64,000 nt of DNA, taken from NCBI RefSeq assembly GCF_044704955.1, contig NC_091998.1, positions 58,962,001 through 59,026,000 of the forward strand. Direction: 5' to 3'. Positions 1-56,135 of this stretch are shown here, in pieces; position 1 is the stretch's first letter; the number at the start of each line of letters is the position of its first letter. The stretch is from Pristiophorus japonicus (taxonomy: Eukaryota). Position numbers and translations under genes: made by a program. The notes beneath the pieces were generated by a model. It was given only the letters and a program-made list of their open reading frames with translations. It ran no database searches and was not told the origin of the DNA.

Positions 1-522
1 CAATCTTCCTGTTCGGAAGAAGAATTCTCTCCCGGTCACTGTCGCTCTTCCTTGCCCCGCCTCTATTCTCTCCCCGCCTCTCCTGACTCCCTGCACAGAG
101 GCTGACTCTTGGCTGGGATATATTTCTACAGGAGTCACTCTCCCCCCCCCCCCCTCCCCAGTACCTCACCAACTTGGCCATTCTTACTGTGAGGCCAAAG
201 TGTTGTCAGGCTATTCAGCCATGGGGGAGGCGCATCATAGCCCAGCCCGACTGATGTATATCCCCAGGATCACTAGATCAGGACCAGGAGCAGGGACCCT
301 GGCCATTTCATCTGCTCCCTGGCGGAGTGTTGCTGAGGCCAATTGTAATGCACCAGTGCCTGCCTTGGTTAACTTGAACCTGACGACCATCCAGCCTGAA
401 TGGCTCAATTCCATTCCAGATGGTGCATTTATCCAGTAATAACTGGGGAGCTGCACTTTTAGTAATCTTGGTCTCAATATATTCTGACGACAGTACTAAC
501 ATGTTCCCTCTTTAACTTACAG

Positions 523-1714
523 TAACACTGGATGTGAGGTACTACAAGACCGCTGTGAGCACAGAGAATGATTTGCCTGTTGTTCTGGGAATCAACAGGC
601 GGAATCTGTTCCTCTCTTGCACGGGATCACATGACAGACCCAGGATGCAGGTGGAGGTAAGGGATTGCACAGTTACCTGACAAATATCACGTCATTGCTA
701 CCTGGAGGCTCGGCCTCTTCTGCCAGCCTGCCTGTGTTCATTCTCTACAACTTACATGTGTCAGAGGATTCAGTCCATGTTTTGCAACCTTCCCTTCACT
801 CTGGCTGTGATGCCCCATGTCCACAATCTGACCAATTTCAACACTGGTTCTGCAGCTTCAGGGAAACCCCCTGCCCATATCTTACAGTCCATCTCCCCTC
901 CTCCTGAAGGTGCTGCCTCTCTCTGCGACACTGGTTCCATGGGTGCTGGCCACCCTCCACTCACTCGCCCATGGAGCCAATCCTCAGATAGTGTATCAGA
1001 AAGCTATTTAACCTGAGGGTGCAGCCCCATAGCCCAATCCTAGCCTGGCCTGACCTGATACCCAAACATGTACAATCTCCAGCAGGGATCGCTGCACAGT
1101 GATCAGGAGCTGGAACCCTGGCATTTTTCCCCCGCCCTATCCCAGGAATGCTCTGTCCTCTCTCCCCTTCCTGGCCAAGGTCAGCTGGCTTAGAATAGTC
1201 CCGGGATCAAGGGCAATCACCCTGTGCATTTGCAGACAGTCAGCTGACGCGGAGTCTGGGCGGAGCCCTAATATCAGGGTAGCAGCCCCGCCAGGCACAG
1301 GAGCTGAATTCCCCAAGAAGGGAATGGGACGGGAAAGGGATGGGCGGCATTAGGTCTGCCGACTCAGAACCTCCCACCAACATCAAGAAACCAGCCCCGT
1401 GCACGCCAACATATCCTGAAATAAAGACCCCTGCAGCTTTTTCAGCTGAAATATAAATGTATTTCAATGTGTTCCAACCGATGATGTTTCTATTTGCACA
1501 GAAATGGGACAAGACTCTGCAGAATATCAGCAGTGCTACCGACCTGCTCCGCTTCGTGTTCTATAAGAAGGATTCGAGTTCTGGCGAGGACTTTGAGTTT
1601 GAATCGGCGATGTACCGGGGCTGGTACATCAGCACGTCCAGAAAGAGCAAACAGCCTGTGGACATGGACCGGAAGGAGCACCGCAAGAGAATCACAATCT
1701 TCACAGCGGAGTGA
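523..1714 (+). CDS. il1b: Interleukin-1 beta-like gene, copy 1 (partial: exons 5-6; 5' part lies left of the window)
   Basis: Exon 5 523-656 (ttacag|...GTGGAG|gtaagg; TLDVRYYKTAVSTENDLPVVLGINRRNLFLSCTGSHDRPRMQVE). Exon 6 1502-1714 (gcacag|KWDKTLQ...RFVFYKK...FESAMYRGWYISTSRKSKQPV...TAE*). PVVLGI..NLFLSC and FES..GWYIST are IL-1 beta-trefoil motifs. Confidence 0.9.
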
Positions 1715-1918
1715 GACCATCCCGAGCTCTCCGCAGTTCACAACACAAACCAGGAGTAGTTGGTTTCGGGAGAGCGTGTGTATGTACTAAGTACAGAATT
1801 CGCAATCCATTGAATTACAATCATTTTGGTCATATTGGACTGAAAAGATTGATGTTGGAATATGTTGGTGAAACACAGGTAGCAATATTTGTTACTGCTT
1901 GACTTGTATATTATTTGC

Positions 1919-2068
1919 ATTTAAACTTTAGTGAAACGAAGGTGTCGTATTTTTGGATCGTGAGGACTAATGATTGTATAAGTTATTCAATATTATTATT
2001 TATTATTTAAATTATTGATCCATTTATTGCTATACTGGAAGAGAAAGCTTCTTCCTTGGTTGATTAAA
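1919..2068 (+). promoter_or_regulatory. 3'UTR AU-rich instability elements and ATTAAA poly(A) signal, copy 1
   Basis: ATTTA at 1919, 1998, 2005 and 2022, including TTATTTATTATTTAA. ATTAAA 2063-2068 is followed by a T-rich tract. Typical of cytokine mRNAs. Confidence 0.7.
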
Positions 2069-2294
2069 TTTTGAGTTTTCTTTCAAACACATTAGTTTCC
2101 TTTTTCATTTTCACACATTTCCTTAAAAATGTTGTTTGGGGTAAAAAAAAATGAAGCACGCACCATTGCTGCAGTAGGAAAAGCTCTTCCATTCCCAACT
2201 GATTCTTTGCAATCTCCACAGTCTCGCGTTTGCTCACTTTTCTCACCCTCTGTTGGGCAGCTCCAGAATGTTTGTTTTTACATTCTCTCCTGAA

Positions 2295-6200: not shown

Positions 6201-7758
6201 ATTAACCCCGCAGGGGAAATCTTTGAGGCGGTTGACCAGTTGATTTTTGACGGCAAAGCCAACCCCATGAAGGCGGTGTTCTTCCTCTGGTTTTCCTTTC
6301 CAGAAAATGGTGTAACCTCCACCATGTTCCTTGATCTGGCCTTTCCCTGCCCGCCTGGTCTCACTTGGGGCGGCGATGTCAATGTCAAATCCTCTAAGTT
6401 CCCGGGCATCTATGGCCGTGCGGCGTTCCAGCCTGTTGCTGTTGTAATTGTCCATGAGGTTGCTGACGTTCCAGGTCTCGAACTTCATAGTTACGAAGTG
6501 GAAAATGCCTGTGTGTGAGTTCTTTTAACGTGGTGTGGCCGCTGCACACCGGCAACCACTCGGGCTTAGCTGAGCAGGGTCTTGGTTCGGCGGAAAGGGG
6601 GTTTAAGACGACTGGAGACTAGGCACTGCTGTATAAGCCTAATTGCCTACGGCGAGGTGTTGGTCGCAAGCTCAGCGCCGAGTAGTGCCATTGATGGTAG
6701 ATGGCCCGAGGCTTGGTTGGGGGATAGGTGTTAGGAAGGTCAGCAGTCCACTGGGGTTCCGAGGGATGTTTTGGAAAGTTTCTTCCAAGGTTAAAAATTT
6801 CCCCAAAGGTTTCCAAGTTGTTTTAAATGTTTGAATTTAGAAGTATTTCCAGATTATTTTTTTTAAAGTTACACAGGTTGATTGAAGGTTTAATAAATAG
6901 ATTAATAGTTCGTTAAAAGTTGATTAAAAAAACTCTAAACTGTAAATCAAGTTGTTTAAAAGTTAATGTTCACTGCTAGCGACCTAGGGCAGATACAGCC
7001 CGTCGGTGTGCCGGGCTGGCTGATTTAGGTGACCCCGAGTGCGAGGCTGGGTCAGGCCGGCTGGCCGAAGGGACCCAGAGTGCGTCGTTGGGCTGGGCTG
7101 GCTGGCCGAAGGGACCCGGAGTGTGTGGTTGGGCGGGGCCGGCTGGCCGAAGGGACCCGGAGTGTGTCGTTGGGCGGGGCCGGCTGGCCGAAGGGACCCG
7201 GAATGCTGAATGTACTCCCATGATGTACAAAGACCTGGATGGACCACACCTGGAGCACTGCGGGGAAGTAGAGGCCCAGTCATCTCCAGAGGGGGCCCGA
7301 ACGCCTGGACACCGCTGGGGAGAGGTCTCAACACTGCTGGGAGGCCAGCACCTTGGCCCGCTGCAATCCCGGGCCGAATGGCCTCCCCGCTCCCGGCCCG
7401 CGTAAAGCCGATTAGTAAACATCCACAGGGGTCTCAGCACTGAACCAAGCGGCTCCAAGCTCAGATCCCAGGAACTGCAAGAGGGGTATAAATGAAAAAG
7501 CTGACAAGGCCCTAGCACAGACGGTGGAGTGAAGGGCTCCCGAGAGTGGATCTATGGCCTAACACTCTTCCACCAGTGGACCCATGCTGACCCGAGTCTA
7601 ACTCTTGACGGCAACCCCTCCGGCCTAGCGACCCCTCCACTCACTGCACCCTCCCTCCTCTCTGCAGCCTGGTACCGCAGGCCTATACATTCGACAGCCA
7701 CTCCTAAGATATCCGCAGCCTCTCCTGAGCTATCCGCACCCACCGGCCAATCTCCTAG
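3243..7758 (-). mobile_element. RTE-clade LINE, long copy with frameshifted endonuclease-RT ORF (unit 1)
   Basis: Endonuclease N-terminus MKFETWNV...SETR (6090-6488); RT pieces NYRAISLLS...ECGFRP, GVKQGCVIAPTLF, LQYADD and LRWAGH. 3' tail (TGA)n reads atcatcatca on +. 10-bp TSD CTATTTATAT at 3233-3242 and 7759-7768. Confidence 0.9.
7059..7202. repeat. 41-bp GC-rich minisatellite (3 full units + partial)
   Basis: Unit ggctggccgaagggacccggagtgtgtcgttgggcggggcc starts at 7059, 7100, 7141 and 7182. Confidence 0.9.
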
Positions 7759-11085: not shown

Positions 11086-11299
11086 CGTGGGGTCTTTGCC
11101 ATTCTGGCCATTTGAATTCCCGTCACATGGGCGGTCGGCTGCCAAAGATACGACCAAAATGGCAACCTGACCAACAAACTCCAGGGGTGTCACCAATGGC
11201 AAGCCCAACAGGAGCAGGTCCGGCTCTAACACATTCGCACCTAGTGCGAGAAAATGAAACACCTTTAACATCAGGCACTCCCACGATAGGTACGGAACA

Positions 11300-11540
11300 G
11301 GTTAGATACAGAGTAATGCTCCCTCTACACTGTCCCATCAAATGCTCCCAGGACAGGTACAGCACGGGGTTAGATACAGAGTAATGCTCCCTCTACACTG
11401 TCCCATCTAACACTCTCAGGGCAGGTACAGCACGGGGTTAGGTACAGAGTAAAGCTCCCTCTACACTGTCCCATTAAACACTCCCAGGGCAGGTGCAGCA
11501 CGAGATTAGATACAGAGTAAAGCTCCCTCTACACTGATCT
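11300..11540. repeat. ~68-bp tandem repeat, 4 unit starts (same in unit 2 at ~29476-29715)
   Basis: Repeated gttagatacagagtaaagctccctctacactgtcccatcaaacactcccagggcaggtacagcacggg. Confidence 0.9.
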
Positions 11541-13165: not shown

Positions 13166-13530
13166 TCAGCTCAGTGGGCAGCACAGTCGCCTCTGAGTTG
13201 TGGGTTCAAGCCCCACTCCAGAAACTTGAGCACATAAATCTAGGCTGACATTGCAGTGCAGTGCTGAGGGAGCTCTGCACTGTCGGAGGTGCCACCTTTT
13301 GGATGAGACATTAAACCGAGAGCCCTCTGCTCTCTCAGGTGGATGTAACAGATCCCATGGCATTATTTGGAAGAACAGTAGAGGAGTTATTCCCAGTGTT
13401 CTGGCCAATATTTATCACTCTGTTTGCTGTTTGTGGGAGCTTGCTGTGCGCAAATTGGCTGCTGCCTTTCCCACATTACAACAGTCACTACACTCCAAAT
13501 GTACTTTGTTGGCTGTAAAACACTTTGAGA
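13166..13530 (+). mobile_element. Deu-domain SINE, 3' end cut by CR1 (copy 31342-31704; complete version 49904-50350)
   Basis: tRNA-like head gctcagtgggcagcac...gggttcaagcccc (A/B boxes) followed by the same body as the other SINEs. Confidence 0.75.
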
Positions 13531-15368
13531 CATAGAAACATAGAAAATAGGTGCAGGAGTAGGCTATTCGGCTCTCGAGCCTGCACCGCCATTCAATAAG
13601 ATCATGGTTGAACATTCCTTCAGTACCCCTTTCCTGCTTTCTCTCCATACCCCTTGATCCCCTTAACCGTAAGGACCATATCTAACTCCCTCTTGAATAT
13701 ATCCAATGAACTGACATCAACAACTCTCTGCGGCAGGGAATTCCACAGGTCAACGCTCTATCAGTGAAGAAGCTTCTCCTCATCTCAGTCCTAAATGGCC
13801 TATCCCTTATCCTAAGACTATGTCCCCTGGTTCTGGACTTCCCCAACATCAAGAACGTTCTTCCTGCATCTATCAGAATCTTATATGTTTCTATGAGATC
13901 CTCTCTCATCCTTCTAAACACCAGTGAATAAAGGCCCAGTTGATCCAGTCTCTCCTCATATGACAGCCCAGCCATCCCTGGAATCAGTCTGGTGAACCTT
14001 CGCTGCACTCCCTCAATAGCAAGAACATCCTTCCTCAGACTAGGAGACCAAAACTGAACACAATATTCCAGGTGAGGCCTCACTAAGGCCCTGTACAACT
14101 GCAGTAAGACCTCCCTGCTCCTATATTCAAATCCCCTAGCTATGAAGGCTAACATACCATTTGCCTTCTTTACCGCCTGCTGTAACTGCGTGCCCACTTT
14201 CAGTGACTGATGAACCGTGACACCCAGGTCTCGTTGCACCTCCCCTTTTTCTAGTCTGCCGCCATTCAAATAATATTCTGCCTTTGTGTTTTTGCCCCCA
14301 AAATGGATAACCCCACATTTATCCACATTATACTGCATCTGCCATGTATTTGCCCACTCACCTAATCTGTCCAAGTCACCCTGCATACTCTTAGTGTCCT
14401 CCTTACAGCTCACACTGCCACCAAGTTTAGTGTCATCTGCAAACTTGGAGATATTACACTCTATTCCTTCATCCAAATCGTGAATGTATATTGTAAAGAG
14501 CTGGGATCCCAGCACTGAGCCGTGCGGCACCCAACTAGTAACTGCCTGCCATTCTGAAAAGGACCCGTTTATCCCGACTCTCTGCTTCCTGTCTGCCAAC
14601 CAGTTCTCTATCCACGTCAGTACATTACCCCCAATACCACGCGCTTTGATTTTGTACACCAATCTCTTATGCAGGACCTTGTCAAAAGCCTTTTGAAAGT
14701 CCAAATACACCACATCCACTGGTTATCCCTTGTCCACTCTACTAGTTACATCCTCAAAAAATTCCAGAAGATTCGTCAAGCATGATTTCCCTTTCATAAA
14801 TTCATGCTGACTTGGTCCGATCCTGTCACTGCTTTCCAAATGGGCTACTATTTGATCCTTAATGATTGATTCCAACATTTTCCCCACTACTGATGTCAGG
14901 CTACCCAGTCTATAATTACCCGCTTTCTCTCTCCCTCCTTTCTTAAAAAGTGGCGTCACATTAGCTACCCTCCCATCCATAGGAACTAATCCAGAGTCGA
15001 TAGATTGTTGGAAAATGATCACCATTGCATCCACTATTTCTAGGGCCACTTCCTTAAGTACTCTGGGATGCAGACTATCAGGACCCGAGATTTATCGGCC
15101 TTTAATCCCATCAATTTCCCTAACACAATTTCCCGCCTAATAAGGATATCTTTCAGTTCCTCATTCTCACTAGACCCACTGTCCGCTAGTACATTCGGAA
15201 GGTTATTTGTATCTTCCTTTATGAAGACAGAACCGATGTATTGGTTCAATTGGTCTGGCATTTCTTTGTTCCCCATTATAAATTCACCTGAATCCGACTG
15301 CAAGGGACCTACATTTGTCTTTACTAATCTTTTTCTCCTCACATATTTATAGAAGCTTTTGAAGTCAG
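13531..15368 (-). mobile_element. CR1-clade (HER1-like) LINE, 5'-truncated, upstream of IL-1b copy 2
   Basis: 345-aa ORF VYLDFQKAFDKV...GSVLG...KFADDTKL...LVRPHLEYCVQFWSP; 8-bp (TTTCTATG)n tail seen as catagaaacatagaaa. Confidence 0.92.
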
Positions 15369-15836
15369 ATCCTCCCCCCTCCACCCCCCCCACACCCCGC
15401 CTCCCTCCACCTTATGGCCCACCAATCCTACCTTGGGCAATACACTGGCATCCCCAGCACAGACTGATTCTTTGATTTGCAGCCTCTGGTACTGAGACTG
15501 TCTGAATTGAGAAGCACAGCGAAATACTGCAGCTTGCTGGAAATCTGAAAACGCAAAGTGCGCCTGCTCGCCAGGTCAAGCAGCATGAGGGGGGAAACCC
15601 TGCCCAGGCTGCAGCAGGGGTATTGGAGGGACGGAAAATTACAGCTACAGTGTGTGATGTGGCTGAGGTTCTGGGCCTCAGTATCATTACACTCAGAGGG
15701 TAAAATGCTGCCTGGATACCCTCAACACAGAACAAGTGTGGCCTTTACTTGTTAAACCTTATGGGGCTTAGCAGGCAGTGAAATGCTTTTGCTTTTCAAA
15801 CTTTGAATGGGTACCAGTGGCGAGAGGGTTAATTTC

Positions 15837-15961
15837 GGGAATATCCACACGCTGAGGAACTTCTAAAGACATTTCTGAAATAATGCACTACGCAATCAAA
15901 AAAATTCCATCCAGGGGAGACCCGCCCTGAGGGAGGAGCATGTGGAGGGCGCTGTGTATAA
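15837..15961 (+). promoter_or_regulatory. Putative IL-1b proximal promoter, copy 2
   Basis: TATAA 15957-15961, 125 bp before the ATG. kappaB-like GGGAATATCC 15837-15846; ETS/PU.1-like GAGGAACT 15854-15861; C/EBP-like TTCTGAAAT 15873-15881 and CTACGCAAT 15888-15896. These factor classes regulate mammalian IL1B; function here is inferred. Confidence 0.6.
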
Positions 15962-16081
15962 GACACGGGCTGAAGGCTGTTTATCAGCACAGCGACACAG
16001 TAATCCTGACAATCTTGAGCACACCGCCAGATATAACCTCAAACAACTGAGAGCGTCAAATCTACCGCGAAGACACGAGGC

Positions 16082-19000
16082 ATGAAGACTGAGGTTGGAC
16101 CCGTGACCATTCCAATGGTTGATAGTGAATCTCGAAGGTAAGATTTTGTTTAGTGTTTAATCCCAAACTGAGCGATGCCAGTCGCTCTCTATCTCTGAAT
16201 CCTGCCCATGTTTGCAGCAACTAAATGATGCTCGCTCTATCCGCAGAACCTTCAGTCACCGCCGCCGCAGGAATTCTCGCCTGACTTCTCCGGTCTCCTG
16301 CCCCCAGCTCAAGGTAAGAATCTTTCACTGGCATTGTATCAACCTGATATTGGTGTGTGGGGGCATGGGGGGGGGGGACATGCATTTTGTTACAGTTACA
16401 GTAAGCTTGAGTTGGTAAATATTACAATGCTCTGAGCGAGCAGAATTCACAATGCAAATTGAACCCTCTTTGGAAATATTTTCTAAGTGCAGAGATTAAA
16501 TTCCCAGGCCCCACCCCACACTCCAGCCCACCAATCCGGGCTGCGAGAGTTTCCTCTGTCTCAGCCCTCACAGAACCAGAGACATTTACAGCACGGAGCG
16601 AGACCATTTGGCCCATCGAATCCGCGCCGGCCGACCAAGAGCAACCCAGCTTAATCCCACTTTCCAGCTCTCGGTCCGTAGCCCTGCAGGTTACGGCACT
16701 TCACGTGCACATCCAAGTATTTTTTAAATGTGGTGAGGGTTTCTGCCTCTACCACCCTTTCAGACAGTGAATTTCAGACCCCCACTACCCTCTGGGTGAA
16801 GACATTTCCCCTCAAATCCCCTTTAAACCTGCTACCAGTCACTGTAAAGCTATGCACCCTGGTTATTATCCCCTCTGCTAAGGAAACAGGTTCTTCCTAT
16901 CCACTCTATCTAGGCCCCTCATAATTTTACACACCTCAATTAGGTCTCCCCTCAGCCTCCTCTGCTCCAAAGAAAACAGACCCAACCTATCCAATCTTCC
17001 CTCACAGCTAAAATTCTCCGTCATGTGCTCCAACTTGCCAGCCACAGGGTATCAGTGTGTGGTGCCTGCAGCGGTTGGGAGGTCCTGTTTCTGCACCAAT
17101 TGCAGTAATTCCAGGCAATCCCCTGAGTGTATCCTGGGCGCAGCTTCTTGTCCATGGTGTTACAGAGACATCGCATTCCTTCATCTCAACTCCCACTAAA
17201 CATGCCTGGGACCCTTGGCATTTCTGGGGGGGCTGGAGGCTGGGGCAAAAAAAGCACATCACCCGCCAACGAGACTGGACTCACCGAATCTAACTGTTTG
17301 CTCATTTTGCAGAGCCTATTTCAAGAGACCTTACCAAAAGTGATGGAGACGAGCACGGCCAATCACCGAGCAGACGGAGAGAGCTACCAGCTAGAAATCA
17401 CCGGGACATCCTCGTCCATAACCACGGCCGGCAATGCAGTACTCTCGCTGGAAAAGGCTGTCATGTTGGTCCTGGCTGTTGAAAAATTCAAGAAAGGGTT
17501 GGGGCGGCCGTCGAGCAATGGCTGGGGACACAAGGGCACTTCCTTCAAGGGCAGCGAGCTGCTCGGGAGCTTCAATGCGCTGGTGGAAGGTAAGAAGCGT
17601 TTCCTTCCAGTGTTGTCATTGGTGCCATGGCCAACTGTGTGAGCAGTGTGGCACCCGGCATCATGGCTGCTGGCTGCTGTGTCAGTGCTTCTGTTGCTGC
17701 TCCCTCATTGTTGCTGGCTCAATATAGTGGCATTGCCCACAGCAGCTGTGGCATTCCCATTGGCGTAAGGATTTGACAAGACAGCCTGGCACCCGGGTAA
17801 CCCGGGCTGGCCAAGAACTGCAGCCTTGCCAGCGCTGCCCAGAGACATATTACACTTCCAGATTGATTTTTTTTCTGATCAATCTCCGTTAATTTGCTGC
17901 GGTGAATAACTGCTTTCGATTTGTGCCAACAGAAGCCATTACCTGCATCAGCTATGACGACACTGAACAGGCGAACAGCTCCTACAGGTTCATGCGGAGT
18001 GAGCGCACGCAGGTGAAGGACGAGCAAGACAAGTCTCTGATGCTGTCGGACAACCTCCAGCTCGTCGCCCTGTTCTTGCAGGAGCCGAAGGACGAAGGTG
18101 GGTCACCTCAGCCCTTGCTCTTTTCTGGAACACTTCAAACAAGGAAAAGTTGGCCAAAGTATTTCAATCTTCCTGTTCGGAAGAAGAATTCTCTCCCGGT
18201 CACTGTCGCTCTTCCTTGCCCCGCCTCTATTCTCTCCCGGCCTCTCCTGACTCCCTGCACAGAGGCTGACTCTTGGCTGGGATATATTTCTACAGGAGTC
18301 ACTCTCCCCCCACCCAGTACCTCACCAACTTGGCCATTCTTACTGTGAGGCCAAAGTGTTGTCAGGCTATTCAGCCATGGGGGAGGCGCATCATAGCCCA
18401 GCCCGACTGATGTATATCCCCAGGATCACTAGATCAGGACCAGGAGCAGGGACCCTGGCCATTTCATCTGCTCCCTGGCGGAGTGTTGCTGAGGCCAATT
18501 GTAATGCACCAGTGCCTGCCTTGGTTAACTTGAACCTGACGACCATCCAGCCTGAATGGCTCAATTCCATTCCAGATGGTGCATTTATCCAGTAATAACT
18601 GGGGAGCTGCACTTTTAGTAATCTTGGTCTCAATATATTCTGACGACAGTACTAACATGTTCCCTCTTTAACTTACAGTAACACTGGATGTGAGGTACTA
18701 CAAGACCGCTGTGAGCACAGAGAATGATTTGCCTGTTGTTCTGGGAATCAACAGGCGGAATCTGTTCCTCTCTTGCACGGGATCACATGACAGACCCAGG
18801 ATGCAGGTGGAGGTAAGGGATTGCACAGTTACCTGACAAATATCACGTCATTGCTACCTGGAGGCTCGGCCTCTTCTGCCAGCCTGCCTGTGTTCATTCT
18901 CTACAACTTACATGTGTCAGAGGATTCAGTCCATGTTTTGCAACCTTCCCTTCACTCTGGCTGTGATGCCCCATGTCCACAATCTGACCAATTTCAACAC

Positions 19001-19870
19001 TGGTTCTGCAGCTTCAGGGAAACCCCCTGCCCATATCTTACAGTCCATCTCCCCTCCTCCTGAAGGTGCTGCCTCTCTCTGCGACACTGGTTCCATGGGT
19101 GCTGGCCACCCTCCACTCACTCGCCCATGGAGCCAATCCTCAGATAGTGTATCAGAAAGCTATTTAACCTGAGGGTGCAGCCCCATAGCCCAATCCTAGC
19201 CTGGCCTGACCTGATACCCAAACATGTACAATCTCCAGCAGGGATCGCTGCACAGTGATCAGGAGCTGGAACCCTGGCATTTTTCCCCCGCCCTATCCCA
19301 GGAATGCTCTGTCCTCTCTCCCCTTCCTGGCCAAAGTCAGCTGGCTTAGAATAGTCCCGGGATCAAGGGCAATCACCCTGTGCATTTGCAGACAGTCAGC
19401 TGACGCGGAGTCTGGGCGGAGCCCTAATATCAGGGTAGCAGCCCTGCCAGGCACAGGAGCTGAATTCCCCAAGAAGGGAATGGGACGGGAAAGGGATGGG
19501 CGGCATTAGGTCTGCCGGCTCAGAACCTCCCACCAACATCAAGAAACCAGCCCCGTGCACACCAACATATCCTGAAATAAAGACCCTTGCAGCTTTTTCA
19601 GCTGAAATATAAATGTATTTCAATGTGTTCCAACCGATGATGTTTCTATTTGCACAGAAATGGGACAAGACTCTGCAGAATATCAGCAGTGCTACCGACC
19701 TGCTCCGCTTCGTGTTCTATAAGAAGGATTCGAGTTCTGGCGAGGACTTTGAGTTTGAATCGGCGATGTACCGGGGCTGGTACATCAGCACGTCCAGAAA
19801 GAGCAAACAGCCTGTGGACATGGACCGGAAGGAGCACCGCAAGAGAATCACAATCTTCACAGCGGAGTGA
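16082..19870 (+). CDS. il1b: Interleukin-1 beta-like gene, copy 2 (complete, 6 coding exons, 303 aa)
   Basis: Exons 16082-16137, 16247-16313, 17313-17589, 17933-18097, 18679-18812, 19658-19870. All introns are GT-AG and phases join (56+67+277+165+134+213=912 nt). Propeptide motifs YQLEIT, LEKAVMLVLAVEKFKK and FKGSELLGSFNALVEE resemble IL1B IQLRIS, FRQAASVVVAMDKLRK and FQENDLSTFFPFIFEE. The mature part has KDEQDKSLM and an IL-1 signature-like FESAMYRGWYIST. No signal peptide. Confidence 0.92.
16572..17020 (-). mobile_element. Old CR1-type 3' fragment in IL-1b intron 2 (also in copies 3 and 4)
   Basis: gaccatttggcccatcga...ttctgcctctaccaccctttcagacagtgaatttcagacccccactaccctctgggtgaa resembles the CR1 3' region. 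Confidence 0.55.
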
Positions 19871-20074
19871 GACCGTCCCGAACTCTCCGCAGTTCACAAC
19901 ACAAACCAGGAGTAGTTGGTTTCGGGAGAGCGTGTGTATGTACTAAGTACAGAATTCGCAATCCATTGAATTACAATCATTTTGGTCATATTGGACTGAA
20001 AAGATTGATGTTGGAATATGTTGGTGAAACACAGGTAGCAATATTTGTTACTGCTTGACTTGTATATTATTTGC

Positions 20075-20224
20075 ATTTAAACTTTAGTGAAACGAAGGTG
20101 TCGTATTTTTGGATCGTGAGGACTAATGATTGTATAAGTTATTCAATATTATTATTTATTATTTAAATTATTGATCCATTTATTGCTATACTGGAAGAGA
20201 AAGCTTCTTCCTTGGTTGATTAAA
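20075..20224 (+). promoter_or_regulatory. 3'UTR AREs and ATTAAA, copy 2
   Basis: Same motifs as copy 1; ATTAAA 20219-20224. Confidence 0.7.
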
Positions 20225-37200: not shown

Positions 37201-38073
37201 CACTGGTTCTGCAGCTTCAGGGAAACCCCCTGCCCATATCTTACAGTCCATCTCCCCTCCTCCTGAAGGTGCTGCCTCTCTCTGCGACACTGGTTCCATG
37301 GGTGCTGGCCACCCTCCACTCACTCGCCCATGGAGCCAATCCTCAGATAGTGTATCAGAAAGCTATTTAACCTGAGGGTGCAGCCCCATAGCCCAATCCT
37401 AGCCTGGCCTGACCTGATACCCAAACATGTACAATCTCCAGCAGGGATCGCTGCACAGTGATCAGGAGCTGGAACCCTGGCATTTTTCCCCCGCCCTATC
37501 CCAGGAATGCTCTGTCCTCTCTCCCCTTCCTGGCCAAGGTCAGCTGGCTTAGAATAGTCCCGGGATCAAGGGCAATCACCCTGTGCATTTGCAGACAGTC
37601 AGCTGACGCGGAGTCTGGGCGGAGCCCTAATATCAGGGTAGCAGCCCCGCCAGGCACAGGAGCTGAATTCCCCAAGAAGGGAATGGGACGGGAAAAGGAT
37701 GGGCGGCATTAGGTCTGCCGGCTCAGAACCTCCCACCAACATCAAGAAACCAGCCCCGTGCACACCAACATATCCTGAAATAAAGACCCTTGCAGCTTTT
37801 TCAGCTGAAATATAAATGTATTTCAATGTGTTCCAACCGATGATGTTTCTATTTGCACAGAAATGGGACAAGACTCTGCAGAATATCAGCAGTGCTACCG
37901 ACCTGCTCCGCTTCGTGTTCTATAAGAAGGATTCGAGTTCTGGCGAGGACTTTGAGTTTGAATCGGCGATGTACCGGGGCTGGTACATCAGCACGTCCAG
38001 AAAGAGCAAACAGCCTGTGGACATGGACCGGAAGGAGCACCGCAAGAGAATCACAATCTTCACAGCGGAGTGA
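34284..38073 (+). CDS. il1b: Interleukin-1 beta-like gene, copy 3 (complete, 303 aa)
   Basis: Exons 34284-34339, 34449-34515, 35509-35785, 36129-36293, 36882-37015, 37861-38073. Intact. One substitution seen vs copy 2: GCT>ACT (Ala>Thr) at 36911 in exon 5. Confidence 0.92.
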
Positions 38074-42600: not shown

Positions 42601-44194
42601 GATTTTTGACGGCAAAGCCAACCCCATGAAGGCGGTGTTCTTCCTCTGGTTTTCCTTTCCAGAAAATGGTGTAACCTCCACCATGTTCCTTGATCTGGCC
42701 TTTCCCTGCCCGCCTGGTCTCACTTGGGGCGGCGATGTCAATGTCAAATCCTCTAAGTTCCCGGGCATCTATGGCCGTGCGGCGTTCCAGCCTGTTCCTG
42801 TTGTAATTGTCCATGAGGTTGCTGACGTTCCAGGTCTCGAACTTCATAGTTACGAAGTGGAAAATGCCTGTGCGTGAGTTCTTTTAACGTGGTGTGGCCG
42901 CTGCACACCGGCAACCACTCGGGCTTAGCTGAGCAGGGTCTTGGTTCGGCGGAAAGGGGGTTTAAGACGACTGGAGACTAGGCACTGCTGTATAAGCCTA
43001 ATTGCCTACGGCGAGGTGTTGGTCGCAAGCTCAGCGCCGAGTAGTGCCATTGATGGTAGATGGCCCGAGGCTTGGTTGGGGGATAGGTGTTAGGAAGGTC
43101 AGCAGTCCACTGGGGTTCCGAGGGATGTTTTGGAAAGTTTCTTCCAAGGTTAAAAATTTCCCCAAAGGTTTCCAAGTTGTTTTCAATGTTTGAATTTAGA
43201 AGTATTTCCAGATTATTTTTTTTAAAGTTACACAGGTTGATTGAAGGTTTAATAAATAGATTAATAGTTCGTTAAAAGTTGATTAAAAAAACTCTAAACT
43301 GTAAATCAAGTTGTTTAAAAGTTAATGTTCACTGCTAGCGACCGAGGGCAGATACAGCCCGTCGGTGTGCCGGGCTGGCTGATTTAGGTGACCCCGAGTG
43401 CGAGGCTGGGTCAGGCCGGCTGGCCGAAGGGACCCAGAGTGCGTCGTTGGGCTGGGCTGGCTGGCCGAAGGGACCCGGAGTGTGTGGTTGGGCGGGGCCG
43501 GCTGGCCGAAGGGACCCGGAGTGTGTCGTTGGGCCGGGCCGGCTGGCCGAAGGGACCGGGAGTGTGTCGTTGGGCCGGTCCGGCTGGCCGAAGGGACCCG
43601 GAGTGTGTCGTTGGGCGGGGCCGGCTGGCCGAAGGGCTGGCTGAATGTACTCCCATGATGTACAAAGACCTGGATGGACCACACCTGGAGCACTGCGGGG
43701 AAGTAGAGGCCCAGTCATCTCCAGAGGGGGCCCGAACGCCTGGACACCGCTGGGGAGAGGTTTCAACACTGCTGGGAGGCCAAACACCTTGGCCCGCTGC
43801 AATCCCGGGCCGAATGGCCTCCCCGCTCCCGGCCCGCGTAAAGCCGATTAGTAAACATCCACAGGGGTCTTAGCACTGAACCAAGCGGCTCCAAGCTCAG
43901 ATCCCAGGAACTGCAAGAGGGGTATAAATGAAAAAGCTGACAAGGCCCTAGCACAGACGGTGGAGTGAAGGGCTCCCGAGAGTGGATCTATGGCCTAACA
44001 CTCTTCCACCAGTGGACCCATGCTGACCCGAGTCTAACTCTTGACGGCAACCCCTCCGGCCTAGCGACCCCTCCACTCACTGCACCCTCCCTCCTCTCTG
44101 CAGCCTGGTACCGCAGGCCTATACATTCGACAGCCACTCCTGAGATATCCGCAGCCTCTCCTGAGCTATCCGCACCCACCGGCCAATCTCCTAG
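39602..44194 (-). mobile_element. RTE-clade LINE (unit 3 copy)
   Basis: Same element; TSD 39592-39601 / 44195-44204. Confidence 0.9.
43418..43636. repeat. 41-bp minisatellite (5 full units + partial)
   Basis: Units at 43418, 43459, 43500, 43541, 43582 and 43623. Confidence 0.9.
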
Positions 44195-47100: not shown

Positions 47101-47709
47101 CTGCTCCGCCATTCACTTAGATCATGGCTGATCTGCACCTCACCTCCATTTCCCTTTCCTCCATATCCCTTGATTCCCATACCGAACAACAATCTCCCGA
47201 TCTCAGCCTTGAAAGCTTCAATTAACATCCACAGCCTTTTGGGGGAAAGGTGGCCCAGATTTCTACTATTCTTTGAAAAAGTGCTTCATGATTTCCCTCT
47301 AATTAGTTCTAATGTTGAGGTTGTGCTTCCTTGTTCAGGACTCGCCCGCCAGAGGACATAGTTATCTACCCTATCAACCCCTTTAATAATAAACACCTCG
47401 ATCAGATCACTCCCTCTATACAAGCCAGAGGTATGAAACCTGTTCTCAGAATGTAACCCTCTCAGCTTCGGGATCATTCTGGTGAATCTGCGTGGGGTCT
47501 TTGCCATTCTGGCCATTTGAATTCCCGTCACATGGGCGGTCGGCTGCCAAAGATGCGGCCAAAATGGCAACCTGCTCAACAAACTCCAGGGGTGTCACCA
47601 ATGGCAAGCCTAACAGGAGCAAGTGCGGCTCTCTCTGACACATTCGCACCGAATGGTAGAAAATGAAACACCTTTAACATCAGGCACTCCCACGGTAGGT
47701 AAGGAACAG

Positions 47710-48285
47710 GTTAGATACAGAGTAATGTTCCCTCTACACTGTCCCATTAAACACTCCCAGGGCAGGTACAGCACGGGGTTAGATAGAGAGTAATGCTCCC
47801 TCTACACTGTCACATCAAACACTCCCAGGGCTGGTAGAGCAAGGGGTTAGATACAGAGTAAAGCTCCCTCTACACTGTCTTATTAAACACTCCCAGGGTA
47901 GGTACAGCACGGGATTAGATACAGAGTAAAGCTCCCTCTACACTGTCCCATCATACACTCCCAGGGCAGGTACAGCACGGGTTAGGTAGTGAGTAAAGCC
48001 CCCTCTACACTGTCCCATTAAACATTCCCAAGGCATGTACAGCACGGGTTAGATACAGAGTACAGCTCCCTCTACACTGTCCCATCAAACACTCCCAGGA
48101 CAGGTACAGCATGGGTTAGATACAGAGTAAAGCTCCCTCTACACTGTCCCATCAAACACTCCCAGGACAGGTACAGCACGGGTTAGATACAGAGTAAAGC
48201 ACCTTCTACACTGTCCCATCAAACACTCCCAGGGCAGGTACAGCACGGGTTACATACAGAGTAAAGCTCCCTGTATACTGTCCTG
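47710..48285. repeat. ~68-bp tandem repeat, 9 unit starts
   Basis: Same unit as 11300-11540; a longer array at the paralogous position upstream of copy 4. Confidence 0.9.
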
Positions 48286-51094
48286 TCAATGTACCTCCGA
48301 CCGAACTCTGAGAACATTGCTCACTGCCCAATAGAACCTAGTTCCATTCCCCATACCTCTCGTCCTGTCGTCCATCTGAGTGAGACTCAGTAAGAAGTTA
48401 GGCAATAGCAGCTCATTCGAAACTGGGTTGAGGCCTCATGTAACAAATAGTTTCACTCATCAGTTTTAGGTGCATTTGAAGGGGAATTTGTTTTTATTCC
48501 TATCATTCAGTCTGTCCAGAGTAAATGATCCGGTGCTCAGCACAAGTCAGGAGCAGGCAGCAGACATTTCCCCACAGCAAGATTTTCTATCCATTCATTT
48601 TGATGAACAGAAAATCATTTGATGCACATGTGCAATTTCACAATTATGTGCTCTCGTCCTGTGACTAGAACTTAGAAGTGGAATTCTTACCCTGACAACT
48701 GACTTCATTCAGTGTGACTCCCAATGGTGGAAGGTCAGTCTCTATCCCACTGCACCACCAATGGGCCATCCTCCAATCAGATCAGCTGGCAGACTATGTA
48801 CTCCTTAAATTAGATGCCTCAAGGTATACACGGTGAAACACAGAAACCTAGGCTGAGTGCTGAGGGAGCGCTGCATTGTTGGAGGTGACGTCTTTCGGAT
48901 GAGATGTCAAACCAAGTCTACTCTCTCAGGTTGACGTAACTGGCCCCATGGCACTATTTCAAAAAAGAGCAGGGGTGTTAACCCCAGTGTCCTGGCCAAT
49001 ATTTATCCCTCAATCAACATCACTAAAACAAATTATCTGGTCTTTATCACATTGCTGTTTATAGAAGTTTGCTGTGTGCAAAAATTGGCCGCATTTCCTA
49101 CATTACAACAGTGACTACACTTCAAAAAATACTGCATTGTAAAGCGCATTGGGGACCTTCGGTGGTCGTGAAAGACGCTATAGAAATGCAAGTCTTTCTT
49201 TATACAAGGGGAAGGAGTGTCTGGGAGTACTTTCACACCATGGGTCTGTGCACATTTACACAGATTGAGGATGAAATTGCACATGGGCGGTGTCTCACCG
49301 GTCTCCCGTTAAACCCTGGGCCCGATGGTCAGTTCCACTGACTTCATCAGAATTGAAATAAAAACAAAGAATGCTGGAAATCTCAGCGGGTCAGTAGAAT
49401 TGAATATCGGGTGCAACGGTCGGCAAATGCGATTCTGTCTGTTTTACGTCCCCCGCCCCACCCCATGTGCATCCCCCATCCCATAATAACCTCATGTGGT
49501 CCAACTGATCACACGTACTGTGGACGAGCGGGACGAGATGGGGAAGTTTATTGTGAGTGCGGTCACTGAGCTCAGTGAACGGACATGCTTCCTGGAAACT
49601 TTCCCTCAGGGCAAGTGTGATCTGTATTGTTCACTCGTCTGTAACCTCTGCAGAATGGTGCTGGCCGCTGCAATCCGGGCCGGGGAGGTGATACCGAGCT
49701 GTGTACTATTGGGTTACCCCGAAACATTGAATGGGTGGGGACCCATTGCACTTTTAAATGTGGCATTCCAGCTGTTTGAAAGACCGGATACATTTCCGGC
49801 TTTTGCAACCCTGAAACTGCCTCAGAGAAAGTCGCCTAACACAATAAACTTCGCTCAATAGATCAGCCACTCCTTCTGTTCGCTTGGACACTTGTTTTTT
49901 TATGTCAGCTCAGTGGGTCGCACATTCGCCTGTGAGTTGTGGGTTCAAGTCCCACTCCAGAAACTTGAGCACATAAATCTAGGCTGACACTGCAGTGCAG
50001 TGCTGAGGGAGCGCTGCACTGTCGGAGGTGCCGTATTTCCGATGAGACGTTAAACCGATTCCCCTTTGGTCCCTCAGGTGGATGTAAAAGATACCATGGT
50101 ATTATTTCGAAGAAGAGTAGGGGAGTAGGCCAGTGTCCTGGCCAATATTTATCACTCCATCAACATCACTAAAATACAGATTATCTGGTTATTATCACTT
50201 TGCTGTTTGTGGGAGCTTGCTGTGCGCAAATTGGCTGCCACATTTCCCACATTACAACAGTCACTACACTCCAAAAGTACTTCGTTGGCTGTAAAGCACT
50301 TTGAGACGTCCGGTGGCTGTGAAAGGCGCTATATAAATCCAAGTCTTTCATTTTCTTTTCGTGTCCTGTCTCCAGGGCAAGGCAGAAACTTATAGAATCA
50401 TACAACACAGAAGTAGGCCGTTCAGCCCATCGTCTCTTTGGAAGGGTTTTCTAATCCGTCCCAAGCCCTTCCCTTTCCCCAAAGCCTTGCACCTTTTTCC
50501 TTTCCAAATATTTATCCGATTCACTTTTAAAAATTATTATTGAATCTGTTTCCGCCGCCCTCTCAGGCAGAACATTCCAGACCACAACAACTCGCTGCGT
50601 AAAAAAAGTTCACCCCATCTCCCCTCTGGTTCTTTAGCCAATGATCTTAACTCTGTGTCCCCCCTCCACCTTATGGCCCACCAATCCTACCTTGGGCAAT
50701 ACACTGGCCATCCCCAGCGCAGACTGATTCTTTGATTTGCAGCCTCTGTTACTGAGACTGTCTGAATTGAGAAACACAACGAAATACTGCAGCTTGCTGG
50801 AAATCTGAAAATGCAAAGTGTGCCTGCTCGCCAGGTCAGGCAGCATGGGGCAAAAACCCTCCCCAGGCTGCAGCAGGGGTATTGGAGGGACGGAAAATTA
50901 CAGCTGCAGTGTGTGATGTGGCTGAGGTTCTGGGCCTCAGTATCATTACACTCAAAGGGTAAAATGCTGCCTGGATACCCTCAACACAGAACAAGTGTGG
51001 CCTTTACTTGTTAAACCTTATGGGGCTTAGCAGGCAGTGAAATGCTTTTGCTTTTCAAATTTGAATGGGTACCAGTGGCGAGAGGGTTAATTTC

Positions 51095-51219
51095 GGGAAT
51101 ATCCACACGCTGAGGAACTTCTCAAGACATTTCTGAAATAATGCACTACGCAATCCAAAAAATTCCATCCAGGGGAGACCCGCCCTGAGGGAGGAGCATG
51201 TGGAGGGCGCTGTGTATAA
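51095..51219 (+). promoter_or_regulatory. Putative IL-1b proximal promoter, copy 4
   Basis: GGGAATATCC 51095-51104 and TATAA 51215-51219. All motifs are retained although the DNA further upstream is diverged. Confidence 0.6.
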
Positions 51220-51339
51220 GACACGGGCTGAAGGCTGTTTGTCAGCACAGCGACACAGTAATCCTGACAATCTTGAGCACACCGCCAGATATAACCCAAA
51301 ACAACTGAGAGCGTCAAATCTACCGCGAAGACACGAGGC

Positions 51340-54300
51340 ATGAAGACTGAGGTTGGACCCGTGACCATTCCAATGGTTGATAGTGAATCTCGAAGGTAAG
51401 ATTTTGTTTAGCGTTTAATCCCAAACTGAGCGATGCCAGTCGCTCTCTATCTCTGAATCCTGCCCATGTTTGCAGCAACTAAATGATGCTCGCTCTATCC
51501 GCAGAACCTTCAGTCACCGCCGCCGCAGGAATTCTCGCCTGACTTCTCCGGTCTCCTGCCCCCAGCTCAAGGTAAGAATCTTTCACTGGCATTGTATCAA
51601 CCTGATATTGCGGGGGGTGAGGGGGGAAGACATGCATTTTGTTACAGTTACAGTAAGCTTGAGTTGGTAAATATTACAATGCTCTGAGCGAGCAGAATTC
51701 ATAATGCAAAAGGAACCCCCTTTGGAAACACTTTCTCAGTGCAGAGATTAAATTCCCAGGCCCTACCCCACGCTCCAGCCCACCAATCCGGGCTGCGAGA
51801 GTTTCCTCTGTCTCAGCCCTCAAAGAACCAGAGACATTTACAGCACGGAGCGAGGCCATTCCGCCTATCGTGTCCGCGCCGGCCGACCAAGAGCTACCCA
51901 GCCAAATCCTACTTTCCAGCTCTCGGTCCGTAGCCCTGCAGGTTATGTCACTTTAGGTGCATATCCAAGTACTTTTTAAATGTGGTGAGGGTTTCTGCCT
52001 CTACCACCCTTTCACGCAGTGAGTTCCAGACCCCTACCATCCTCTTTCCCCTCAAATCCCCTTTAAAGCTCCTACCAATGACTGTAAAGCTATGCGCCCT
52101 GGTTATTCACCCCTTCCTATCCACTCTATCTAGGCCTCCTCTGTTCCAAAGAAAACAGACGCAGCCTATCCAATCTTCCCTCACAGCTAAAATTCTCCGT
52201 CCTGTGCCCCAACTTGCCAGCCACAGGGTATCAGTGTGTGGTGCCTGCAGCGATTGGGAGGTCCTGTTTCTGCACCAATTGCAGTAATTCCAGGCAATCC
52301 CCTGAGTGTATCCTGGGCGCAGCTCCTTGTCCAAGGTGTAACAGAGACACCTCATTCCTTCATCTCAACTCCCACTAAACACGCCCGGGACCCTTGGCAT
52401 TTCTGAGGGGGGACTGGAGGCTATGGTAAAGAAAGCACATCACCCGCCAACGAGACTGGACTCAGTGAATCTGACTGTTTGCTCATTTTGCAGAGCCTAT
52501 TTCAAGAGACCTTACCAAAAGTGATGGAGACGAGCACGGCCAGTCACCGAGCAGACGGAGAGAGCTACCAGCTAGAAATCACCGGGACATCCTCGTCCAT
52601 AACCGCGGCCGGCAATGCAGAACTCTCGCTGGAAAAGGCTGTCATGTTGGTCCTGGCTGTTGAAAAATTCAAGAAGGGGTTGGGGCGGCCGTCGAGCAAT
52701 GGCTGGGGACACAAGGGCACTTCCTTCAAGGGCAGCGAGCTGCTCGGGAGCTTCAATGCGCTGGTGGAAGGTAAGAAGCGTTTCCTTCCAGTGTTGTCAT
52801 TGGTGCCATGGCCAACTGTGTGAGCAGTGTGGCACCCGGCATCATGGCTGCTGGCTGCTGTGTCAGTGCTTCTGTTGCTGCTCCCTCATTGTTGCTGGCT
52901 CAATATAGTGGCATTGCCCACAGCAGCTGTGGCATTCCCATTGGCGTAAGGATTTGACAAGACAGCCTGGCACCCGGGTAACCCGGGCTGGCCAAGAACT
53001 GCAGCCTTGCCAGCGCTGCCCAGAGACATATTACACTTCCAGATTGATTTTTTTTCTGATCAATCTCCGTTAATTTGCTGCGGTGAATAACTGCTTTCGA
53101 TTTGTGCCAACAGAAGCCATTACCTGCATCAGCTATGACGACACTGAACAGGCGAACAGCTCCTACAGGTTCATGCGGAGTGAGCGCACGCAGGTGAAGG
53201 ACGAGCAAGACAAGTCTCTGATGCTGTCGGACAACCTCCAGCTCGTCGCCCTGTTCTTGCAGGAGCCGAAGGACGAAGGTGGGTCACCTCCGCCCTTGCT
53301 CTTTTCTGGAACACTTCAAACAAGGAAAAGTTGGCCAAAGTATTTCAATCTTCCTGTTCGGAAGAAGAATTCTCTCCCGGTCACTGTCGCTCTTCTTTGC
53401 CCCGCCTCTATTCTCTCCCCGCCTCTCCTGACTCCCTGCACAGAGGCTGACTCTTGGCTGGGATATATTTCTACAGGAGTCACTCTCCCCCCACCCAGTA
53501 CCTCACCAACTTGGCCATTCTTACTGTGAGGCCAAAGTGTTGTCAGGCTATTCAGCCATGGGGGAGGCGCATCATAGCCCAGCCCGACTGATGTATGTCC
53601 CCAGGATCACTAGATCGGGACCAGGAGCAGGGACCCTGGCCATTTCATCTGCTCCCTGGCGGAGTGTTGCTGAGGCCAATTGTAATGCACCAGTGCCTGC
53701 CTTGGTTAACTTGAACCCGATGACCATCCAGCCTGAATGGCTCAATTCCATTCCAGATGGTGCATTTATCCAGTAATAACTGGGGAGCTGCACTTTTAGT
53801 AATCTTGGTCTCAATATATTCTGACGACAGTACTAACATGTTCCCTCTTTAACTTACAGTAACACTGGATGTGAGGTACTACAAGACCGCTGTGAGCACA
53901 GAGAATGATTTGCCTGTTGTTCTGGGAATCAACAGGCGGAATCTGTTCCTCTCTTGCACGGGATCACATGACAGACCCAGGATGCAGGTGGAGGTAAGGG
54001 ATTGCACAGTTATCTGACAAATATCACGTCATTGCTACCTGGAGGCTCGGCCTCTGCTGCCAGCCTGCCCGTGTTCATTCTCTACAACTTACATGTGTCA
54101 GAGGATTCAGTCCATGTTTTGTAACCTTCCCTTCACTCTGGCTGTGATGCCCCATGTCCACAATATGACCAATTTCAACACTGGTTCTGCAGCCTCAGGG
54201 AAATCCCCCGCCCATATCTTACAGTCCACTTCCCCGCCTCCTGAGGTGCTGCCTCTGGGATACTGGTTCCATGGGTGCTGGCCACCCTCCACTCCCTCGC

Positions 54301-55046
54301 CCATGGAGCCCATCCTCAGATAGTGTATCAGAAAGCTATTTAACCCGAGGGTGCGGCCCCACAGCCCAGTCCTAGCCTGGCCTGACCTGATACCCAAACA
54401 TGTACAATCTCCAGCAGGGATCGCTGCACAGTGATCAGGAGATGGAACCCTGGCCTTTTTCCCCCGCCCTAGCCCAGGAATGCTCTGTCCTCTCTCCCCT
54501 TCCTGGCCAAGGTCAGCTGGCTTAGAATAGTCCCGGGATCAAGGGCAATCGCCCTGTGCATTTGCAGACAGTCAGCTGACGCGGAGTCTGGGCGGAGCCC
54601 TAATATCAGGGTAGCAGCCCCGCCAGGCACAGGAGCTGAATTCCCCAAGAAGGGAATGGGACGGGAAAGGGATGGGCGGCATTAGGTCTGCCGGCTCAGA
54701 ACCTCCCACCAACATCAGGCAACCAGCCCCGTGCACACCAACATATCCTGAAATAAAGCCCCCTGCAGCTTTTTCAGCTGAAATATAAATGTATTTCAAT
54801 GTGTTCCAACCGATGATGTTTCTATTTGCACAGAAATGGGACAAGACTCTGCAGAATATCAGCAGTGCTACCGACCTGCTCCGCTTCGTGTTCTTTAAGA
54901 AAGATTCGAGTTCTGGCGAGGACTTTGAGTTTGAATCGGCGATGTACCGGGGCTGGTACATCAGCACGTCCAGAAAGAGCAAACAGCCTGTGGACATGGA
55001 CCGGAAGGAGCACCGCAAGAGAATCACAATCTTCACAGCGGAGTGA
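51340..55046 (+). CDS. il1b: Interleukin-1 beta-like gene, copy 4 (complete, 303 aa; last copy of the array)
   Basis: Exons 51340-51395, 51505-51571, 52494-52770, 53114-53278, 53860-53993, 54834-55046. Intact. Versus copy 2: N>S, T>A and V>E in exon 3, Y>F in exon 6, plus two synonymous Lys changes. Confidence 0.92.
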
Positions 55047-55250
55047 GACCGTCCCGAACTCTCCGCAGTTCATAACACAAACCAGGAGTAGTTGGTTTCG
55101 GGAGAGCGTGTGTATGTACTAAGTACAGAATTCGCAATCCATTGAATTACAATCATTTTGGTCATATTGGACTGAAAAGATTGATGTTGGAATATGTTGG
55201 TGAAACACAGGTAGCAATATTTGTTACTGCTTGACTTGTATATTATTTGC

Positions 55251-55397
55251 ATTTAAACTTTAGTGAAACGAAGGTGTATTTTTGGATCGTGAGGACTAAT
55301 GATTGTATAAGTTATTCAATATTATTATTTATTATTTAAATTATTGATCCATTTATTGCTATACTGGAAGAGAAAGCTTCTTCCTTGGTTGATTAAA
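55251..55397 (+). promoter_or_regulatory. 3'UTR AREs and ATTAAA, copy 4
   Basis: Same motifs; ATTAAA 55392-55397. Confidence 0.7.
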
Positions 55398-56135
55398 TTT
55401 TAAGTTTTCTTTCAAACACATTAGTTTCCTTTTTCATTTTCACACATTTCCTTAAAAATGTTGCTTGGGGTAAAAAACATGAAGCACGCACCATTGCTGC
55501 AGTAGGAAAAGCTCTTCCATTCCCAACTGATTCTTTGCAGTCTCCACAGTATCGCGTTTGCTCACTTTTCTCACCCTCTGTTGGGCAGCTCCAGAATGTT
55601 TGTTTTTACATTCTCTCCTGAAGAAAGAAAGATTTGCATTTCTATCGTCGCTTCCACCAGCTCAGGACGTCCCAAAGCCCTTCGCAGTCAATTAACCATT
55701 GTAATGTGGGAAACACAGCAGCCAAATTCCGCACAGCAAGCTCCAAAAACAGCAGTGCAGATAATGAGCAGATAATCTGATAGTTAGTGATGTTGATTGA
55801 GGGATAAATAATGGCCAGGACACCAGGAAAGCTCCCCCTGCTTTTCTTCAAATGGCACCGTGGGACCTTTTCTATGCACCTGAGAGGTGGGCCCTCACTT
55901 TAACCTCTCATTCAAAAGACGGCCCCTCCGGCAGTGCAGCACTGGGTGTCAGCCTGGATTGTATGCTGAAGTCTCCGGACTGGAGCTCCGGGACTGAGAC
56001 GAGAGTGCTGCCACTGAGCCAAGGCTGACACTCGGCAGTATTGGGGGAGGTGCTGCATTCTTGGTCAGGTGCAGTTTCACAGGCGCTGACCATATTTCTC
56101 TATCTCAGCTAAGTGACCATTCTTTATGTATGTAT

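Follow-up and report, generated by a model that had tools for sequence, protein, structure and literature searches.

What keeps several copies of one cytokine gene alike in a shark genome, and how many copies are there? This question is raised by a stretch of 64,000 nucleotides from the genome (5.92 Gb) of the Japanese sawshark, Pristiophorus japonicus (assembly GCF_044704955.1, contig NC_091998.1, positions 58,962,001 to 59,026,000), called the window in the following. A sequence-only reading of the window had claimed at least four near-identical, head-to-tail genes for interleukin-1 beta (IL-1beta) and suspected more copies to the left. Both claims hold: with 200 kilobases (kb) of flank added on each side, 464 kb in all, we find six head-to-tail units reaching from about -45962 to 56135, two of the gene copies lying left of the window. 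Coordinates are contig positions minus 58,962,000, so that negative values lie left of the window, and copies are numbered 1 to 6 from left to right, the four described before being copies 3 to 6. The array is real and transcribed, and we think it probable that unequal crossing-over and gene conversion both multiplied its genes and have preserved their likeness, with a higher dose of one cytokine as the likely outcome.

Aligned to itself, the window shows a direct repeat about every 18.2 kb: positions 1-29712 match positions 18165-47945 at 98.3%, with 56135 as the end of the last copy. Five full units of about 18.2 kb are followed by a shorter final one, and the 464 kb contain no N. The genes and one complete unit are located as follows.

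-38478 to -34694, forward strand: copy 1, intact, outside the window
-20243 to -16453, forward strand: copy 2, intact, outside the window
1 to 1714, forward strand: the part of copy 3 inside the window (exon 5 at 523-656, exon 6 at 1502-1714); the whole gene is intact, with its ATG 2081 bases left of the window
16082 to 19870, forward strand: coding span of copy 4, exons at 16082-16137, 16247-16313, 17313-17589, 17933-18097, 18679-18812 and 19658-19870
34284 to 38073, forward strand: coding span of copy 5, intact, with the private variant A199T at 36911
51340 to 55046, forward strand: coding span of copy 6, intact, the most diverged copy (4-5 amino acids, introns 3.7%)
15369 to 33560, forward strand: one full repeat unit, about 18.2 kb

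No IL-1beta copy beyond these six was found among the candidates scored in the genome searches (13 by DNA, 16 by family and 45 by protein); the family search has too little power to address IL-18 or IL-1anc.

All six genes are intact. Each comprises six coding exons of 56, 67, 277, 165, 134 and 213 nucleotides with introns of the GT..AG type, and an open frame of 912 nucleotides encodes a protein of 303 amino acids. As had been stated from the window, its three complete genes (ATG at 16082, 34284 and 51340) keep their open reading frame and splice sites, with five GT..AG introns each, and differ pairwise by 1, 4 and 5 amino acids; the copy-specific variants named there, at 36911 and in exons 3 and 6 of copy 6, were likewise verified. 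Nine coding sites vary across the six copies, in codons 5, 58, 66, 79, 84, 102, 199, 254 and 256. Copies 1 to 5 differ from one another by 0-2 amino acids and copy 6 from the others by 4-5, three of its changes lying in the pro-region; within the mature domain there are at most two differences among the copies. Four distinct 303-amino-acid proteins of P. japonicus labelled 'interleukin-1 beta-like' in UniRef correspond to copies 2 and 4, copies 1 and 3, copy 5, and copy 6, and the four proteins of the six genes are thus already annotated in public records. Promoter motifs and AU-rich elements had been described as kept. This stands for the TATA-, NF-kB-, C/EBP- and ETS-like words and four ATTTA words, present in all six copies, but not for one upstream NF-kB-like word, which is missing from copy 6; these words were matched with consensus patterns and counted without a chance control.

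Divergence between the copies depends on their place in the array. Copies 2 to 5 differ among themselves by 0.25-0.56%, copy 1 by 0.75-1.14% and copy 6 by 2-5%, so that identity is highest in the middle and falls toward both edges; at the left edge the divergence of copy 1 drops from about 8% to 0.3% over about 3 kb. When the five junctions between units (J1 to J5) are compared from intron 4 to the next promoter, J1 and J4 differ in 19 of 15470 columns (0.12%) and J2 and J3 in 11 of 15441 (0.07%), the four cross pairs show 80-88 differences (0.52-0.57%), and J5 stands apart with 427-450 (3.1-3.25%). Shared variants start in intron 2 for copies 2 and 3 and in intron 4 for copies 1 and 4, and they extend into the sequence upstream of the copies that follow; the latest exchanges would accordingly seem to have had their breakpoints within the gene.

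Copy 6 is divergent in a patchy manner. It differs by 5% upstream, by 7.2% in intron 2 and by 3.5% in intron 5, and at none of 343 positions in intron 3 and none of 165 in exon 4. Its 91 fixed differences in 2793 intron columns leave a run of 375 columns without any, a length reached in 4 of 10000 shuffles; with intron 2 excluded the run is 447 (35 of 10000 shuffles). Because such a clean run over intron 3 and exon 4 is rare in shuffles, it fits gene conversion in copy 6. At residue 254 copy 6 matches 21 of 22 other species, and copies 1 to 5 share a changed residue. The exons of copy 6 differ at 6 of 912 positions versus 103 of 2793 in its introns (p = 2e-7; 0.008 without intron 2), with synonymous differences at 2 of 204 sites; this low exon divergence may come from conversion as well as from selection.

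The edges of the array hold an older record. A composite of 1.45 kb, made of local sequence and two repeats, is found left of copy 1, at the five junctions and right of copy 6.

-51700 to -50253: left edge repeat, uninterrupted, 1.45 kb
20811 to 26795, forward strand: a unit junction, with the edge repeat at 20811-21398 and 25938-26795, between which lies a 4.5-kb insertion with a reverse-transcriptase remnant
55983 to 62550, forward strand: right edge repeat in pieces at 55983-56135, 57572-58148, 61118-61503 and 62457-62550, split by later insertions

All five junctions share the split layout. Outside the homogenised part the three classes of edge repeat (left, junction, right) are 6-16% apart and carry different later insertions, which argues that several copies existed long before the genes acquired their present likeness. 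The 'recent amplification' that had been proposed therefore describes the five inner units, which are alike, whereas the edges record an older array that was apparently homogenised inside under concerted evolution. The left edge repeat either seeded the first misaligned crossover or is what remains of a seventh unit that was lost. We rejected independent insertions of one mobile element as the origin of the edge repeats, because the parts of the composite are separate common repeats and the whole occurs only at the seven places of the array among 40 scored of 1921 candidates.

The explanation that we favour would run as follows. An old duplication between edge repeats, or one that left them behind, would have started the array; later misaligned crossovers between the 18-kb units would add or remove copies and so alter their number between haplotypes, and crossovers together with conversion would keep the copies alike, with the edges lagging. 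Induction would act through the shared proximal promoter and decay of the messenger through AU-rich words, as is known for IL-1beta. As the copies have the same proximal promoter, the same 3' words and a nearly identical mature domain, the simplest effect would be more transcript on induction, that is, a summed output rather than different cytokines. Selection for dosage may have contributed.

To what extent do sequencing data agree with six copies? The gene is present in seven public runs from four samples and two studies, of which five were examined (X1, X3, X5, X6 and X7). X1 and X3 come from one sample, perhaps the source of the assembly, and thus test the assembly and not the species. All depths were taken from contigs of the runs, of which 32 of more than 434,000 pieces were listed, and contig depth is no copy number. 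Contigs of the gene have a depth of 26-38 in X1 and 30-43 in X3, versus 9.4-13.2 and 8.2-10.6 for the eight listed flank contigs, one of which is part of the edge repeat. The four gene-to-flank ratios, 2.3-3.3 in X1 and 3.4-4.75 in X3, agree with the multi-copy state that had been read from the window and not with one or two copies, and therefore make a false duplication of a one- or two-copy gene unlikely. Contigs of the copy 6 type mostly have depths of 7-12.5, obtained by subtraction and about at flank level (two values are 3-4). Taken together, depth points to about three to five copies per haploid set, short of six on both haplotypes; six may be the count of one haplotype or a slight over-assembly, and copy-number variation between haplotypes is hinted at by depth in this one sample. 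No variant private to a single copy was visible in the DNA runs, whose contigs keep one majority path, and this path is a mix of variants that matches no single copy. Among the matches listed no contig bridges a unit junction, the flanks there being high-copy repeats.

X5, X6 and X7 were read as RNA because introns 1, 3, 4 or 5 are skipped in them at GT..AG, although the database records list no run as RNA. The splice joints of introns 3, 4 and 5 of copy 4 and of introns 1, 3 and 5 of copy 6 are present in these RNA-type contigs. One RNA-type contig of 692 nucleotides has 220 letters ahead of exon 3, equal to exons 1 and 2 plus 97. In copy 4 the TATA-like word lies 125 bases ahead of the ATG, and the 220 letters fit a transcription start just after this word, though a further untranslated first exon, as in the seven-exon type I gene form, may exist. 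In X5, intron 5 occurs as a copy 6 type (depth 268-371), a copy 2/3 type (659) and a copy 1/4/5 type; provided that a single animal was sampled, this implies transcription from two loci or more. X7 has two of the three types, weakly, at a depth below 5. Over window positions 17250-20420 X5 reaches about 10,000 in exon joint contigs, 600-1,800 in introns and 5-25 in the flank, and exon depth is about 150-200 in X6 and 17-30 in X7. The high exon depth of X5 may reflect induction, contig depth being a poor measure of expression.

That these are ordinary IL-1beta genes at the IL-1beta syntenic site is supported by sequence comparison, in agreement with the identity and the cartilaginous-fish origin that had been proposed. 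PF00340 (IL1 domain) matches residues 182-298 (E 4e-21). Solved-structure sequences matched best are those of IL-1beta (E 7e-20), followed by IL-1Ra (5e-9) and IL-36/37/38 (2e-8 or weaker), with neither IL-18 nor IL-1alpha among the 40 matches; the evidence for the fold consists of sequence likeness to solved beta-trefoils. Bird IL1B aligns over residues 69-300 (32% identity, E 4e-29) and hence through the pro-region, for which the Pfam pro-peptide model gave no match to the sawshark protein. In a tree without outgroup the sawshark proteins nest among elasmobranch proteins labelled IL-1beta. Right of the window, exons of the CKAP2 family lie 113-131 kb away and a PurA-family gene 247 kb away, and the same contig carries OGDH-, PHO4- and CNNM-family genes, the nearest 4-14 Mb away, all recognised at the family level only. 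As CKAP2L, PURB, SLC20A1 and OGDH are described as neighbours of the IL-1beta locus (PMC5861070, PMC7144542), the CKAP2- and PurA-family neighbours are those expected and support this identity. Another IL-1 subfamily was rejected on the IL1 domain, the closest solved relatives and the bird alignment through the pro-region. IL-1anc / nIL-1F, which PMC13736523 defines by a PDZ domain at the N-terminus and by a separate locus, was rejected as well, since PF00340 is the sole domain found.

A caspase-1 aspartate directly ahead of the mature domain is absent: the alignment with the human mature chain begins near residue 152, and the nearest aspartates are residues 142-143. The mammalian caspase-1 site is described as lacking in non-mammals (PMC3511578), and human caspase-1 is reported not to have cut shark IL-1 (PMC9382457). 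Residues 24-27 (exon 2, window 16247-16313) are four arginines in a row, a run partly shared with the sevengill shark only; fish IL-1 has been likened to IL-1alpha, and one could speculate that the run serves as a nuclear signal. A second, single CKAP2-family match lies 320 kb past the main one (G000:C22:59478771-59478917) and two CNNM-family matches are 55 kb apart (C22:63181465-63237419), possibly further local duplications on this contig.

Mobile-element DNA makes up much of each unit. One piece lies ahead of copies 1 to 5 (also at 31701-33557) and is absent ahead of copy 6.

13527 to 15368, reverse strand: retrotransposon piece with a reverse-transcriptase domain, ending about 590 bases before the TATA-like word

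We take it to be a CR1-like long interspersed nuclear element. It occupies the place of about 350 bases retained only by copy 6 (50308-50658). Two tandem repeats could be used as length markers for single units: a 41-bp repeat with 3.7, 4.6 and 5.6 copies at 7055-7206, 25204-25392 and 43407-43636, and a 67-68-bp repeat with 4, 4 and 9 copies at 11269-11536, 29445-29712 and 47678-48283.

Is the sawshark alone in this? Protein searches and cluster look-ups gave 46 elasmobranch records, of which 42 were aligned, two short bamboo-shark fragments and two catshark records being left aside. At least two distinct IL-1beta proteins are present in 10 of 23 elasmobranch species including the sawshark, and in the nine others these proteins are on same-length records with near accession numbers. 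The basking shark has four full proteins and a partial one (98.4-100%), the white shark three (98-99%), the starry smooth-hound three (99.3-99.7%) and the brownbanded bamboo shark two (99.7%). Four equal-length 'isoforms' of the sawfish (P0008, P0038-P0040) are exon mixes of two sequences that are 93% alike, with 21 residues differing; a single gene model has probably fused two tandem genes here. In two stingrays and in two devil rays there are two proteins each (87-90%; P0013, P0017, P0029-P0033, P0047). Copies group by species in the white shark, basking shark, smooth-hound, bamboo shark and sawfish, with 98-100% identity within species, whereas white and basking shark are 91-92% alike. In the rays the two proteins sort by paralogue across four species, with six sites of the paralogue pattern versus three of the family pattern, at which the two paralogues of one family have the same residue; they represent an older gene pair in which the three sites hint at later conversion. 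For 13 of the 23 species one protein type is on record, where identical or collapsed copies are invisible and one species has no contig on record. Since splice forms cannot account for substitutions within one assembly, separate loci are indicated; multiple IL-1beta loci would thus exist in other elasmobranchs, their tandem arrangement being only presumed. The sawshark array is no one-species oddity but apparently an example of something more widespread among sharks and rays.

Ribosomal DNA, the alpha-globin pairs, AMY1 and DEFA1A3 are tandem arrays that evolve in concert. With these the sawshark array shares large head-to-tail units, likeness within the species, divergent edges and conversion tracts, and it differs in its cargo, a tightly controlled master cytokine. 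The mechanism is thus known, whereas cargo and size are unusual. The sequence-only reading had called IL1B single-copy in mammals; the pig, with IL1B1 and IL1B2 duplicated in tandem on one chromosome (PMC5777074), is an exception. The two pig copies are described as having distinct roles, one of them conceptus-specific, in contrast to six near-identical sawshark copies with signs of ongoing homogenisation. Teleosts such as catfish, salmonids and carp also have extra IL-1beta copies, with CKAP2L and PURB as neighbours, but whole-genome duplication is given as the source of types I and II, which have diverged (PMC7144542, PMC4929537), unlike the local 18-kb tandem unit with 98-100% protein identity reported here. 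In amniotes IL-1beta was duplicated at the CKAP2L-linked site as well, and there the copies diverged into agonists and antagonists (IL1A, IL1RN, IL36, IL37, IL38; PMC5861070), while the shark copies remain one protein. Most fishes and amphibians are credited with one IL1 gene (PMC9382457). We found no report of a shark IL-1beta array in the literature searched, subscription immunology journals and supplements lying outside its scope; passages of PMC12108812, PMC13736523, PMC6795676 and PMC7687281 name none, and novelty may be affected by what PMC12108812 holds on copy number and PMC13736523 in its genome tables.

Several observations weigh against a six-copy array maintained for dosage. The pooled depth ratio of 2.8-3.7 is about two thirds of the 5.0-5.5 expected for six copies on both haplotypes, and the likeness of J1 and J4 (0.12%) is also expected of two alleles joined in tandem by an assembler. 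It is therefore conceivable, if unlikely, that two haplotypes of about three to four copies each were joined and that the true count is below six. The junction order a, b, b', a', c can be obtained in this way, a unit has about the length of a typical accurate long read, and no unit-spanning contig was among the matches listed. However, a true unequal crossover yields the same order and a short second haplotype the same depth, there is no N gap, and three junction types are 0.5-3% apart regardless, so that such joining would alter the count and not the existence of the array. That the whole array is an artefact made from a single or double gene is highly improbable. The inner copies are indeed extremely alike and in the DNA contigs a single majority path runs over the gene, but this path mixes variants found in no single copy, gene depth is 2.3-4.75 times that of the flank with separate copy 6-type contigs at about flank depth, and three intron variants occur in one RNA-type run of another sample.

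Selection on each copy lacks support, as exon versus intron constraint in copies 1 to 5 is not significant (4 of 912 versus 31 of 2868, p = 0.11) and six of the nine variable coding sites change the residue. In a genome full of repeats a neutral expansion is plausible: repeat-rich DNA would promote unequal crossing-over, the copies would drift and regulation would buffer the output of IL-1beta. Units consisting largely of mobile-element DNA and the 13 of 23 species with one protein type on record agree with this, but none of the six copies is broken, the exons of copy 6 are far less divergent than its introns (though conversion could also yield that), and multi-copy states occur in six orders, with the ray pair kept across four species. 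We regard a real but neutral array as somewhat unlikely. A splitting of roles, with copy 6 regulated apart from copies 1 to 5 through its different upstream region, seems rather improbable. It has a precedent in pig IL1B2 as described in PMC5777074, and copy 6 is without the retrotransposon upstream, is short of one NF-kB-like word and has 4-5 amino acid changes, three in the pro-region. Its intron alleles make up about 10-23% of X5 intron depth at three places and 5% at a fourth, and its exon alleles are unlisted in X5 at a 5% threshold, although contigs drop rarer variants and exon shares are therefore unreliable. Besides, the proximal promoter words are the same in all six copies, and conversion still reaches copy 6.

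Beyond the sawshark array and its probable dosage effect, we tentatively consider, as a possibility short of an even chance, that IL-1beta across elasmobranchs forms a tandem array in flux: amplification and homogenisation would recur, copy number would differ within species, and dosage selection would maintain the array. It would tune the amount of one cytokine at the site which in amniotes diversified into agonists and antagonists, and would have been hidden by short-read genomes. An array of six copies, together with ten elasmobranch species that have multi-copy records, would revise the picture of one IL1 gene given in PMC9382457. Quantitative PCR, cloning and gene models of shark IL-1beta may pool or merge several loci. 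It would also become testable whether the copy number of a master inflammatory cytokine sets the strength of the response in a vertebrate; if the dosage view is true, extra IL-1beta dosage would be a recurring trait of sharks and rays.

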